A stretch of 64,000 nucleotides of DNA, taken from NCBI RefSeq assembly GCF_056712565.1, contig NZ_CM160072.1; one strand, given 5' to 3'. Below the pieces are notes generated by a model. That model saw only the letters and a list, made by a program, of their open reading frames with translations. It was not told the DNA's origin and did no database searches. The stretch's first letter is position 1, and every line of letters begins with the position of its first letter. A program made the position numbers and the translations under genes. Of this stretch, positions 1,139-42,364 are shown in pieces.

Positions 1139-1417
1139 TTATTGAGTTAACAGAGCCTTGATTTGTTGTTTTAACGCGTCGTCGTTGATCCCTGTGAGCA
1201 GGGCGGCGCCATTAAGCGTAGGGATGCCGTAATCACTGTTGGTTCGCATGGAGGTTACAATAAGGTCCATACCGTTACAGTTAAGAGGGATCTCATTCAG
1301 ACAGCATTGGGCGGTAGTGGCTGAAATGCCCTGTTCAGTCAGGAACTCTTGCAGCTTGTGTGCAATCATGGTTGAAGTCGACATGCCGGTACCGCATGCC
1401 ACAAGGATCTTTTTCAT
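1139..1417 (-). CDS. sgcB: PTS EIIB component SgcB (92 aa)
   Basis: ORF MKKILVACGTGMSTSTMIAHKL... has the EIIB phospho-cysteine loop (CGTGMSTS); 4-nt overlap with upstream sgcX stop. Confidence 0.85.
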   Translation of the reverse strand: MKKILVACGTGMSTSTMIAHKLQEFLTEQGISATTAQCCLNEIPLNCNGMDLIVTSMRTNSDYGIPTLNGAALLTGINDDALKQQIKALLTQ

Positions 1418-2535
1418 AATGGATGTGCCTCTTGTGTAGTGCCTGAATCAGGCTCAACGGGGAAATGTGCTGCTGACATACCTGCCAGAGCGGTCAATAG
1501 GCGGATGCAATCAGTCAAATCACGCAGGCTGGCAACCTCCGCCGGAGAATGGGTATAGCGACAAGGAATAGAGAGACTGGCGCAGGGAATACCATCCTGC
1601 TCAACCTGGATATAACCGGTTTCTGTTATCACGCCGGGAGCCACTTCTCGCTGCACCGGAATGTTGTGTTCAAGAGCCGTCTGTTCCAACATCCGTATCA
1701 GGCGAGGAGGCGTGATTAATCCGGCCAGCGTTCCCCGACCATGGTAGTTCAGGCAGGTGATCCCAACGCCCTGATTAATCCTGACCTCGGAATAATCGTG
1801 TAAATCAGGGGTGTCACACGATGGAGTGATATCAATACCAATCGCCAGGTCAGGTTTTACACGGCGTAATACGGGAACAATGCCGCGGATATTAAATTCT
1901 TCCTGTACCGAAGCCACCAGATAAACGGCGATATCAAGCCCCATAGTACTGATAGCATCCGCTACACCGAGCAGGGCAGTACAGCCTAGACGATCGTCTA
2001 GTGCTTTACTGCACACCAGATCGTTTGCCAGGAGTTGCGGCGGGTTATACAGAGTGACAGGCGTACCGACTTGAATGCCCATCCGTATAGCGTCGTCTTT
2101 GTCTTTGGCACCAATATCAATCCACAGTTTGTCGACAGAAGGTGACTGCGTGCGCTCGTCGCCTTTGGCAAAGTGGTAGGACTTAATGCCGATACACCCC
2201 ATGACTGGCCCTTTGTCCCCGGTGAGGGTGACGATGGAACCAGCCATAGTGACCTGCGCAGGACCGCCTACGCGTTCAAAGCGTAAAAATCCAGACGGCT
2301 CTATTTTGCGCACCATAAAACCGACTTCATCCATATGCGCAAAAATCATCAGTCGCAGCGCATCGGGTTTATCACTACCGTAGCGCGCGACGACATTCCC
2401 AAGCCTGTCTCGCCAGACCTCTTTTGCCTGACGCCTGAATTCGCACAGCATGACGTCAGCGACAGCGTTTTCGTGTCCTGAAATCGCATTGTGCTGCAAA
2501 AGCGAGAACAGGGTTTCCTGCACAGAAAATGACAT
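1414..2535 (-). CDS. sgcX: SgcX, M42-family aminopeptidase/endoglucanase-like protein
   Basis: ORF 1414-2565; start placed at internal MSFSVQETLF to give the 373 aa I recall for K-12 SgcX; operon position sgcX-sgcB-sgcC. Confidence 0.75.
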   Translation of the reverse strand: MSFSVQETLFSLLQHNAISGHENAVADVMLCEFRRQAKEVWRDRLGNVVARYGSDKPDALRLMIFAHMDEVGFMVRKIEPSGFLRFERVGGPAQVTMAGSIVTLTGDKGPVMGCIGIKSYHFAKGDERTQSPSVDKLWIDIGAKDKDDAIRMGIQVGTPVTLYNPPQLLANDLVCSKALDDRLGCTALLGVADAISTMGLDIAVYLVASVQEEFNIRGIVPVLRRVKPDLAIGIDITPSCDTPDLHDYSEVRINQGVGITCLNYHGRGTLAGLITPPRLIRMLEQTALEHNIPVQREVAPGVITETGYIQVEQDGIPCASLSIPCRYTHSPAEVASLRDLTDCIRLLTALAGMSAAHFPVEPDSGTTQEAHPL

Positions 2536-2769
2536 AGCTATCTCCGTAGACCGTAAAACAATCACTCGTTGAGCGTTTTATAGGCGCAGACTGGTCGAAT
2601 AATTGTGAGAACGTTCACGTGAAAACGCGCAAAGCTGAACAAATAAAAAATTATGTGAGCCGAGTGGAATAAAAGCGCTCAACGTTTGTGAAAGTTACGG
2701 GCTGGAGAGACCAGTGATTATGGTTGAAATAATGAGGATGAATAAAACGCGGTAACTGTTATAGCACCA

Positions 2770-2896
2770 CTTTGTTGCAGGACGCTCCCTCTTCATTACG
2801 TCCTGCACGTGGATACCCCAGCATCTCCATCAGCGGATCTTAGAATGTAATGGCGCGTGGCAGGTCGTTGGTTCCCAGCATAATGTAAGAAAACAT
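2770..2896 (-). pseudogene. Remnant of a VOC/glyoxalase-family gene (short N-terminal frame, then frameshifted continuation)
   Basis: AGGAG SD 6 nt upstream of ATG at 2896; frame reads MFSYIMLGTNDLPRAITF then stop; a shifted frame continues DPLMEMLGYPRAGRNEEGASCNKV. N-terminus resembles VOC proteins. Confidence 0.3.
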
Positions 2897-2933
2897 CGGA
2901 TCTCCTGAATAGATTCAGAGGGAGTATAGATAA

Positions 2934-3194
2934 TCAGCTCAAATCACTCTCCGCTTTATGAGCCCAGGCTGGCATTGCCGTCAGATAACGTTTTGCACGC
3001 TTATGTGCTTCCTCCGGGCCGACTTTTTGCCAGGAATCAAGGAAGCTGGCTAAACCTGATACCGCTTCTTCCCAGGGTTTGAGATTGCCGTTGCTGTCGC
3101 TGCATTACGCACAATATTGATCACTGGCACTGTGTGCATCTGGTGCCGACATCGGCATTCCGCAAGCCTGACAGAACTGTTCATGTTGTGACAT
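2934..3194 (-). pseudogene. Small zinc-ribbon protein gene interrupted by in-frame TAA (possibly the K-12 yjhY-type pseudogene)
   Basis: AAGGAG SD 7 nt upstream of ATG at 3194; frame reads MSQHEQFCQACGMPMSAPDAHSASDQYCA-stop-CSDSNGNLKPWEEAVSGLASFLDSWQKVGPEEAHKRAKRYLTAMPAWAHKAESDLS; the TAA (3105-3107) sits inside the second CxxC pair. Confidence 0.5.
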
Positions 3195-3320
3195 ATGATG
3201 CTCCTTATGGTGACATCTTGATTAATAAACATACTGAATATGTATTGTGCAGGTGATACATCAGATCAAAGCAAAGGTAAAGCCTCGATATTTCCAGCCA
3301 GAAATACCGGGAACCTGTTG

Positions 3321-4067
3321 TTACCGGGCGATGAGTGCGAACACGCCCCAGCCAAAGCATTCCCGCGCGTAGGTCACGTAGCGTTTCGGCGCGATGTTTA
3401 GTTCGGCCCTGACTTCGGCGGCGAAGTCATCGTCAGGATTCGCTTCCAGCCAGCGGCGCATGGTCAGCCATTTTGCGGCTTCATACCGGTCCCAGCCTTC
3501 CTGGTCTGCCAGTACCATTTCCACCACGTCATAGCCGAGATCGTCGAACGCTCCGACAAGTCCTGGCAGCGTCAGGAAATCGCTTGTCGAGCTGACGCCG
3601 CAGGCCTGGGCTATTTCTTCTGTTGCTGGTAGCTGACGCCAGTAGGGTTCGCCGATAAGCATGATCCCGCCCGGTTTCAGGCTTTGCGCTAGCAGCTCCT
3701 CCGCCCCGGCAAACCCACCGGCAATCCATGTCGCGCCGACGCAGGCCGCCACGTCACATTTTTCATTTGCGACGTAACCGGCCGCATCGTTATGAATAAA
3801 ATGTACGCGTTCGCTGACGCCGAGTTCTTCCGCGCGACGCTTTGCCTGCGCGGTGAAGAGCGAACTCATGTCGATGCCAGTCCCCGTAATGCCATGATCC
3901 CTGGCCCAGGTGCAGAGCATCTCGCCCGAGCCGCTGCCGAGGTCAAGAATGCGGGTGCCCGGCTTCATGCGCAGCACGCGACCCAGCGTGGCGTACTTCT
4001 CTTCGGTGAACGGGTTATGGATGCGGTGTTCACTTTCGCTGATGGTAAAAATACGTGGGATATCCAT
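3321..4067 (-). CDS. yjhP: SAM-dependent methyltransferase YjhP (248 aa)
   Basis: ORF with methyltransferase motif I (ILDLGSGSGEM); position matches K-12 yjhP. Confidence 0.8.
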   Translation of the reverse strand: MDIPRIFTISESEHRIHNPFTEEKYATLGRVLRMKPGTRILDLGSGSGEMLCTWARDHGITGTGIDMSSLFTAQAKRRAEELGVSERVHFIHNDAAGYVANEKCDVAACVGATWIAGGFAGAEELLAQSLKPGGIMLIGEPYWRQLPATEEIAQACGVSSTSDFLTLPGLVGAFDDLGYDVVEMVLADQEGWDRYEAAKWLTMRRWLEANPDDDFAAEVRAELNIAPKRYVTYARECFGWGVFALIAR

Positions 4068-4122
4068 TATTTAATTCCTGTTATTGGGTTAAGCCTTAAA
4101 AAGGACACAACAAGATTGTTAT

Positions 4123-4668
4123 TCACGTCAGTGCTCCGGTTTCATCAGGGTCTGCGCACCGGATGTGGCCGGTCAGGGTCATGGGCTGAGCGGTGAGTGA
4201 TTGCATCATCCAGCAGGCTTTGTGCTCCTCCGGGATGGGATAAGGTGCCGGATAGCCTTTGTCTCCGGCACAGGGTTCGAACCCATGTCGGGGGTAATAG
4301 GTGGCGTGGCCGAGAACAAAAACCGTCTGGCAGCCCATCAACCTCAGGTGCTCGATGCCAGTGCGTATCAACCGTCCTCCCACGCCCATCCCTTGGTATT
4401 CCGGTATGAAAGCCAGGGGAGCGAGGATGTGCATCAACGGTGAATCCATTTCTCCTTTGAAGGTTGCCCGGGTAAATAAAATATGCCCGACGGCTTTGCC
4501 TTCATACCGGGCTAGCAGCGATAACGCGGGGCGCGCGCTTTCATCCTCAAGTAAAGAGGCCACTAAATCGGCTTCTTTGCCGAAGCCAAATGCGCGGGTT
4601 TCGACTTCCCGGATATCACTGGCATCACTTTTATCTGTGATATGAAAAGTGAAGTGGTGTACTGTCAT
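4123..4668 (-). CDS. yjhQ: GNAT acetyltransferase YjhQ (putative TopAI antitoxin)
   Basis: 181-aa ORF with GNAT-like core (QGMGVGGRLIRTGIEHL); immediately downstream of topAI. Confidence 0.8.
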   Translation of the reverse strand: MTVHHFTFHITDKSDASDIREVETRAFGFGKEADLVASLLEDESARPALSLLARYEGKAVGHILFTRATFKGEMDSPLMHILAPLAFIPEYQGMGVGGRLIRTGIEHLRLMGCQTVFVLGHATYYPRHGFEPCAGDKGYPAPYPIPEEHKACWMMQSLTAQPMTLTGHIRCADPDETGALT

Positions 4669-4679
4669 AGAAACTCTCC

Positions 4680-4936
4680 TTAGCGATTATCGAGCTGAGC
4701 GCGAACTTTATTCAGCTCGGTGGTGTTGATTCGATAGGGCTGGCCATTGACGGACTTGATAAGTTTTTGGTTTTGAGTTTTTTGAAGACGGCGAGCGTGC
4801 AGTCGGTCAGCAACAGCCCTTCGCGGCTGTAGCATTCAACGGAAGTGACGCGGCCTGAAGAATCGCGGACGTGCGCAATACGTCTACCTTTAGCGAGAAC
4901 GTGTAAGGTATGTTGTTCCTGACGGGATAAATTCAT
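4680..4936 (-). pseudogene. topAI: topAI (yjhX) topoisomerase I inhibitor toxin gene, frameshifted in an A-run
   Basis: ORF 4712-4936 gives [57 protein letters not shown] then diverges; the -1 frame continues [27 protein letters not shown] to TAA at 4680-4682, reconstituting the 85-aa K-12 protein if one A is added to the A5 run near 4765-4769. Confidence 0.7.
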
Positions 4937-41794: not shown

Positions 41795-42136
41795 TCAGGC
41801 GACTTTCTGTTTACCCGCAATCACCCCAATAAACTCCTGCACCTGCCTTTGTTTACGCGCCGACAGCTTGCACACCTGGCGAAGCGACTGCATCAGTTCG
41901 CTCTCTTCGGCGGCGGGGGGTTGGGCGGTGAGGACAATACAGCCTTCCATCACTTTGACATCTATCGCCGTGCCAGTGGCAAAACCGGCGGCTTCCAGCC
42001 ACTGACCTTTCAGGGTGATGGCGGGAATACGGCTGTAATCCGGGTAGCGACTCGCATAACTCACGGTTAATTGACGGTTATTTGCCGGGGAGACTTCTGC
42101 TTCGAACGGTTGTGCAATAGAATGCGTGTCAGTCAT
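41795..42136 (-). CDS. symE: SymE, SOS-induced toxin-like protein (113 aa)
   Basis: ORF 41795-42193; start set at [52 protein letters not shown], matching SymE. Confidence 0.85.
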
Positions 42137-42200
42137 GATTACTATTCTCCATAAATAGTGATTGTGATGAGCGGTGCGGGTGTGTTGGCGCACATCCGCA
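42120..42200 (+). ncRNA. symR: Putative SymR antisense sRNA overlapping the symE 5' end (approximate)
   Basis: SymR is known to be encoded antisense to the symE translation start; plus strand here includes GCGGGTGTGTTGGCGCACATCCGC hairpin. Ends not determinable. Confidence 0.35.
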
Positions 42201-42364
42201 TCGCGCTAAATACCTGGATATATCATCAGTAAATACAGGGAAAGTCCAGCTAAAAATAGAATAAAATGGGAAGTTTCTGGAACGATTTAAATATATTTGT
42301 GTGAGTTATGATTGGCGTAAAAATAATAAATAGCGCACCAGAAAGGTGCGCCAGAAAATAATGA

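Follow-up and report, generated by a model that had tools for sequence, protein, structure and literature searches.

A putative decayed tail of the topAI–yjhQ–yjhP module in Escherichia coli: the yjhY pseudogene and a VOC gene stump

The topAI, yjhQ and yjhP genes of E. coli have been described as an operon under the control of Rho and of toiL, an antibiotic-sensing uORF (Baniulyte and Wade, eLife 2025, PMC12121999). Ribosome-targeting antibiotics strongly induce this operon; under tetracycline, the number of footprints on yjhP increases from 15 to 2013 (PMC12121999, supplement). TopAI and YjhQ form a toxin–antitoxin pair (Yamaguchi and Inouye 2015, PMC4666372). The published operon model ends at yjhP and includes neither of the two frames that follow it, and yjhY is absent from the supplementary table of that study (PMC12121999). 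Both frames are already known features: yjhY is a named pseudogene of K-12, and the stump of a VOC family gene is flagged by standard annotation pipelines. A full-text literature search for yjhY and yjhZ found no paper on these loci beyond a table entry for yjhZ.

The window analyzed here is a stretch of 64,000 nucleotides from contig NZ_CM160072.1 of the RefSeq assembly GCF_056712565.1. It belongs to the E. coli chromosome and contains the sgc/yjh part of the accessory island beside the fim genes. Its source is closely related to K-12 but is not MG1655: the first 8.9 kb differ from MG1655 by seven mismatches and one gap; strain ST95-32 is nearer, with two mismatches and one gap over 11 kb. 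When the island haplotypes of MG1655 and ST95-32 are compared with each other, their identity is 99.93% over 10.3 kb. The two short frames lie between sgcX and yjhP, and both frames as well as sgcX, yjhP, yjhQ and topAI are encoded on the minus strand. The neighboring genes are located as follows.

2535..1414, minus strand: sgcX, the neighbor of the VOC stump
3321..4067, minus strand: yjhP, SAM-dependent methyltransferase, the intact gene directly upstream of yjhY on the same strand
4123..4668, minus strand: yjhQ, GNAT acetyltransferase and antitoxin, in the same operon as yjhP
4680..4936, minus strand: topAI (yjhX), toxin gene, with a 1-nt deletion in an A6 run in the window

The deletion in topAI, located near position 4769, changes CCAAAAAAC to CCAAAAAC. 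It shifts the frame after about codon 56 and leaves two ORFs (4936..4712 and 4835..4680). A search with a 431-nt query found this deletion in 0 of 5426 complete E. coli genomes, the best matches having 99.8% identity and one gap. Two origins are conceivable, an error of sequencing in the homopolymer or a private mutation that inactivates the toxin. When all of the window was scanned with Rfam at gathering thresholds, no family appeared in or near the interval occupied by the two frames; symR was the only family that reached its score (SymR antitoxin RNA, 42131..42207, plus strand, 95.8 bits). A promoter-like match on the plus strand at 2857–2884 was dismissed, as there are fewer such matches in the region than in shuffled sequence.

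The zinc-ribbon frame yjhY and its intact orthologues

A reading of this DNA made from the sequence only had described two short degraded frames downstream of yjhP, and all of its sequence statements hold. Both frames have strong Shine–Dalgarno sequences, AAGGAG for yjhY and AGGAG for the VOC stump. The TAA at 3107..3105 breaks the second CxxC of the zinc-ribbon frame within C28-x-x-C31, and the VOC-like frame ends after 18 codons with the TAA at 2842..2840. The labels "zinc knuckle" and "VOC-like" also proved correct. The features of yjhY are listed below.

2934..3194, minus strand: yjhY (b4656), pseudogene of an 86-codon Zn_ribbon_2 gene with one in-frame ochre stop (MG1655 and PGAP annotation, PF12674)
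3201..3206, minus strand: Shine–Dalgarno sequence AAGGAG with a 6-nt spacer to the ATG (read from the sequence)
3194..3192, minus strand: ATG (read from the sequence)
3105..3194, minus strand: sole translatable product of the broken gene, a 29-residue peptide with the first CxxC and C28 (ORF list)
3105..3107, minus strand: premature TAA at codon 30, in place of Tyr between C28 and C31 (TAC in relatives)
2936..2934, minus strand: terminal TGA, the end of the reopened frame

Codons 1–29 of yjhY encode MSQHEQFCQACGMPMSAPDAHSASDQYCA and are followed by the premature TAA, beyond which the frame is open for 56 more codons (CSDSNGNLKPWEE...KAESDLS) up to the terminal TGA. The TAA falls on the second "x" of C28-x-x-C31. 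Thus placed, it separates C8, C11 and C28, which are encoded before the stop, from C31, which is encoded after it, and no single polypeptide contains the CxxC...CxxC pattern. With the Tyr restored, the protein scores 41.9 bits (E = 1.7e-10) against Pfam PF12674 (Zn_ribbon_2; cut-off 22.5), and its residues 7–77 cover positions 1–80 of the 81 positions of the profile. The 29-aa product alone scores 21.0 bits, just under the cut-off. The part past the stop has 98.8–100% identity to intact E. coli proteins; given this identity and the PF12674 score, the zinc-ribbon frame is not a chance ORF. An in-frame restart past the stop was considered and rejected, since the next in-frame Met is codon 74.

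The MG1655 record contains "pseudogene yjhY b4656" at 4532050–4532310, which corresponds exactly to 2934–3194 of the window, and PGAP describes the locus as "hypothetical protein; internal stop" in W3110, ST95-32 and other strains. To judge by the sequence, the window holds a PF12674 pseudogene and not a working member of the family. In some genomes, PGAP starts the zinc-ribbon gene or pseudogene at the internal Met13 (72 aa, WP_117005374.1; 2934–3152 of the window). This start drops the first CxxC; the gene of O55:H7 is annotated with its full 86 aa, and the discrepancy is one of annotation and not of sequence.

Comparison with the orthologous loci of other E. coli, which had been suggested as a check, revealed a single-base change. 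Codon 30 is TAA in the window and in W3110, and TAC in E. coli O55:H7 DEC5E, in Z1323 and in the contig of a metagenomic relative (L024). For these last three, the annotation names an intact "zinc ribbon domain-containing protein". The same was found at the stop of the VOC stump: at both positions, the sense codon of the relatives is TAC, one base from TAA.

A scan of one genome per species revealed 17 orthologous zinc-ribbon loci in the genera Citrobacter, Lelliottia, Hafnia, Yersinia, Klebsiella, Kosakonia, Phytobacter, Trabulsiella, Kluyvera and Entomohabitans. The Shine–Dalgarno sequence AAGGAG (or CAGGAG) is kept upstream of all 17. In the alignment of 15 intact proteins from 11 genera (the E. 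coli O55:H7 allele and 14 orthologues), C8, C11, C28 and C31 are invariant, as is the C-terminal motif RYLTAMPAWAHKA, and residue 30 is Y or W in every protein. The dN/dS values of orthologues against the intact E. coli allele are 0.03–0.13 and are low in both the N- and C-terminal halves; in the closest comparisons, the C-terminal half has a dN of 0.017–0.034 against a dS of 0.10–0.41. These substitution rates show that the intact orthologues have evolved under strong purifying selection over their whole length. Since dN/dS is low in both halves, the portion that is removed by the yjhY stop is functionally constrained elsewhere, and selection has acted on the intact gene as a genuine coding sequence, the portion past the stop included.

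The AlphaFold model constructed from the zinc-ribbon alignment is confident (mean pLDDT 87.4) and predicts a zinc knuckle followed by helices 41–56, 60–72 and 75–85. Neither a PDB sequence search nor a Foldseek search of the PDB with the model gave a significant match to the zinc-ribbon protein. Two further differences between the genes can be noted. Relative to other genera, every E. coli zinc-ribbon allele, whether broken or intact, has lost 1 nt close to the 3′ end (2934..2950 of the window), a deletion which turns the ...KADE-stop terminus of the 83-aa proteins of other genera into the ...KAESDLS-stop terminus of the 86-aa protein. The Kluyvera orthologue (4001–4257 of its locus) has an independent frameshift after codon 17.

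The VOC stump and the five-gene module

The second frame lies between yjhY and sgcX and has the following features.

2780..2896, minus strand: 5′ stump of a VOC/glyoxalase gene, 39 of ~130 codons, with an internal stop (PGAP and intact orthologue)
2902..2906, minus strand: Shine–Dalgarno sequence AGGAG with a 5-nt spacer to the ATG (AAGGAG kept in outgroups)
2896..2894, minus strand: ATG (read from the sequence)
2840..2842, minus strand: TAA at codon 19, ancestral TAC (Tyr) (intact orthologues)
2759..2782, minus strand: deletion junction and non-homologous tail (CNKVVL, then stop), where the VOC homology passes into DNA upstream of sgcX (alignment)

The stump begins with 18 codons encoding MFSYIMLGTNDLPRAITF, which are followed by the TAA; past it, the frame continues as DPLMEMLGYPRAGRNEEGASCNKVVL for 26 more codons to a stop at 2761..2759. 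In every genome inspected, PGAP describes the region corresponding to 2780–2896 of the window as [quoted passage not shown]; the MG1655 record has no feature or gene name at this place. The stump is not yjhZ, as the K-12 pseudogene of that name is a different fragment, located between topAI and yjhR. Pfam and NCBIfam scans of the 45-aa fragment gave no match. Because the fragment is too short for these profiles, its identity was taken from an intact orthologue: it shows 92% identity (E = 8e-25) to residues 1–36 of the intact 130-aa VOC protein of Citrobacter amalonaticus, which indicates that this frame is not a chance ORF either. The C. amalonaticus protein scores 28.5 bits against Pfam PF00903 (Glyoxalase; cut-off 20.6).

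The homology between the E. coli frame and the intact genes ends around codons 36–39. The VOC domain of ~120 residues, built of paired beta-alpha-beta-beta-beta modules, is thus incomplete in the window, where 39 codons are left and codon 19 is a stop. Codon 19 is TAC in Citrobacter, Lelliottia, the lineage of the metagenomic relative and strain fS149a, and short protein homologues of the fragment read FYDPLM at the corresponding position. A protein-database search with the fragment gave only matches of ≤79 aa; a widespread truncation of VOC proteins was not concluded from this, as the search collects its candidates by words. In C. braakii, the VOC orthologue (4317–4700 of its locus) has a large internal deletion and has decayed independently.

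Gene order beyond E. coli places both frames in one module. The order topAI–yjhQ (or a second methyltransferase)–yjhP–Zn_ribbon_2–VOC is kept in C. braakii, C. amalonaticus and Lelliottia, and, without the VOC gene, in Hafnia. An intact VOC ORF of 130 codons directly follows the zinc-ribbon gene in Lelliottia nimipressuralis and C. amalonaticus, and the intact counterparts of the two frames in other genera follow yjhP at the same spacing. Consensus-based scans of the coding strand from topAI to the end of the VOC frame found no terminator-like site in the window or in C. amalonaticus, where a GC-rich hairpin is located after the VOC gene. We infer that the topAI–yjhQP transcription unit has these frames as its decayed tail and that they are still co-transcribed with it; if so, this would account for the retention of strong ribosome-binding sites, which are probably leftovers of recently functional genes.

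Two variations of the module were observed in addition. Upstream of topAI and on its strand, C. braakii (L005:615-731) and C. amalonaticus (L007:898-1014) encode a further VOC-like N-terminus with 85% identity to the fragment, and the five-gene module may therefore be flanked by VOC paralogues in these species. Two Logan assemblies (L025, 261–1898; L026, 255–1892) encode a single 545-aa product with two methyltransferase regions in the yjhQ–yjhP position, so that the intact zinc-ribbon gene is preceded by a methyltransferase gene that is fused or duplicated.

Allele frequencies, order of events and rival explanations

The frequencies of the stops were determined in 5426 complete E. coli genomes by counting exact 59-mers centered on each stop. 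The yjhY/VOC locus is present in about 1650–1670 of these genomes and absent from about 70%. The 59-mer with TAA at codon 30 of yjhY was found in 907 of 1654 carrier genomes, a count inflated by the many laboratory K-12 derivatives in the collection, and the 59-mer with TAC in 680 of 1658. About 40% of E. coli with the locus retain an intact zinc-ribbon gene. The TAA carriers include the K-12 and B laboratory lineages, with MG1655, W3110 and BW25113 among them, and also isolates from humans, poultry, swine and the environment. Over 771 bp, genomes of the TAA haplotype are 99.6–100% identical to the window, and the nearest TAC haplotypes are 99.1–99.2% identical. Sequence comparison suggests that the haplotype carrying both stops may be common to distant lineages of E. 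coli.

At codon 19 of the VOC stump, TAA was found in 1636 of 1650 genomes. This stop is nearly fixed, and the decay of the VOC gene is older than that of yjhY. The yjhY stop is still polymorphic in E. coli and therefore recent, and the allele frequencies identify it as what appears to be a young, segregating null allele. The recent decay proposed from the sequence accordingly applies to yjhY, where TAC changed to TAA and 907 genomes carry the stop against 680 with the sense codon. It does not apply to the VOC stump, where the truncation came first and 1636 of 1650 genomes carry the stop.

Relatives with intermediate states indicate the order of events. Three contigs (L024–L026) encode the YjhX toxin, a GNAT protein, a methyltransferase and an intact 83-aa Zn_ribbon_2 protein, followed by a truncated VOC frame of 45 codons that is joined to the same DNA upstream of sgcX and still has TAC at codon 19. 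Strain fS149a, with a haplotype about 10% divergent, has the truncated stump beside sgcX with the same junction and TAC at codon 19. Since the truncated frame has TAC in both, the truncation occurred first, the ochre mutation of the VOC stump second and that of yjhY third. The stump copy of fS149a is divergent and frameshifted, and its locus (L022, 4001–4730) has no yjh genes; a remnant of an IS4-family transposase stands in their place, and this remnant and a MurR/RpiR-PTS-NanE cluster adjoin the stump and the region upstream of sgcX.

Taken together, the interval very probably consists of two pseudogenes that represent the decayed 3′ end of a horizontally mobile module, topAI–yjhQ–yjhP–Zn_ribbon_2–VOC. 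A deletion or rearrangement would have removed ~90 VOC codons together with the downstream hairpin and brought the DNA upstream of sgcX directly against VOC codon ~39. The useless stump would then have gained the TAC to TAA change at codon 19, which is now nearly fixed. Much later, one haplotype would have gained the TAC to TAA change at codon 30 of the zinc-ribbon gene and given rise to the known pseudogene yjhY; K-12, E. coli B, ST95-like strains and the window share this haplotype. The stop would remove the fourth zinc ligand, C31, and the conserved C-terminal domain of three helices. The broken gene would make a 29-residue peptide at most and is probably to be regarded as a null allele, and neither truncated product is likely to have a function.

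It is vanishingly unlikely that the true codons at 3105–3107 and 2840–2842 are TAC or TAT and that both genes are intact, the stops having arisen by an error of sequencing or assembly. The private homopolymer deletion in the nearby topAI, found in 0 of 5426 genomes, suggests that the assembly is perhaps not error-free. However, both stops are substitutions and not homopolymer indels, the 59-mers with TAA were counted in 907 and 1636 complete genomes that had been sequenced independently, and removal of its stop would leave the VOC frame still about 90 codons short. Since the same TAA recurs in hundreds of independent complete genomes, the sequencing error considered in the sequence-only reading is excluded as its source, and the reference annotation likewise records an internal stop or a pseudogene. 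That reading had also proposed readthrough, whether programmed or tolerated, by which the UAA at codon 30 of yjhY would be decoded often enough to give a functional full-length zinc-ribbon protein; we consider this extremely improbable. The frame past the stop is perfectly open and identical to the intact alleles, but this is expected anyway from a very young nonsense mutation. In favor of readthrough are also an intact ribosome-binding site and an upstream operon that is strongly inducible (yjhP from 15 to 2013, tetracycline, PMC12121999). Against readthrough, the stop is not conserved: a sense codon is found in the closest relatives, in all orthologues and in at least 680 E. coli genomes. 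A stimulatory structure was not detected either, the folding energy of the 81 nt from the stop onward being −17.2 kcal/mol against a mean of −20.2 kcal/mol for shuffled sequences (z = +0.90). The context of the stop is UAA-U, which Poole, Brown and Tate are said to have described in 1995 as the most efficient termination signal of E. coli. UAA is read by both release factors, and we know of no dedicated system of UAA recoding in E. coli. With no restart possible before codon 74, readthrough is thus unsupported.

Another explanation is that the truncation itself is functional, the 29-residue peptide acting as a small protein, or that the loss is adaptive and the null allele was spread by recombination. 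The TAA allele reaches a high frequency (907 of about 1654 carriers), the identity of 99.93% over 10 kb between the MG1655 and ST95-32 haplotypes suggests recent spread, and independent losses are seen in the frameshifted Kluyvera orthologue and the decayed VOC gene of C. braakii. However, a dispensable gene of an accessory island would be just as likely to show shared haplotypes and repeated loss, the locus is missing from about 70% of E. coli genomes, and K-12 derivatives inflate the TAA count. Moreover, the peptide has three of the four cysteines and nothing of the RYLTAMPAWAHKA motif, and purifying selection acts on the full length of the orthologues. A functional or adaptive truncation is therefore very unlikely. 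Some facts do stand against the null reading and against neutral decay: a 29-aa peptide with one CxxC could in principle be made and act, and the high frequency of the TAA allele (about 55% of carriers, a share inflated by K-12 derivatives) is not required by neutral decay. Overall, there is a slim chance that the yjhY ochre is not neutral, either through an advantageous loss and the spread of its haplotype by recombination or through a function of the 29-residue peptide, or of a trace product of UAA readthrough, in the antibiotic-induced response of topAI–yjhQP.

Comparison with known systems

With two decayed genes as the preferred reading, the topAI–yjhQ–yjhP operon of K-12 would be the truncated form of a five-gene module, the tail of which is intact in Citrobacter and Lelliottia. 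K-12 would then be a natural double mutant for the operon tail, which is relevant to work on the physiology of the operon. Relative to this operon, both pseudogenes are located directly downstream and on the same strand, whereas the published operon ends at yjhP. The window does not differ from MG1655 within the interval: yjhY has the same locus, the same extent of 261 nt, the same strand and the same internal TAA. When compared with Zn_ribbon_2 proteins, such as the 86-aa E. coli protein WP_000077645.1, the restored yjhY shares the CxxC...CxxC pattern, whereas the product encoded in the window ends at residue 29. VOC proteins of PF00903 are single-domain proteins of ~130 aa, whereas the fragment in the window comprises only about 30% of the domain and contains a stop.
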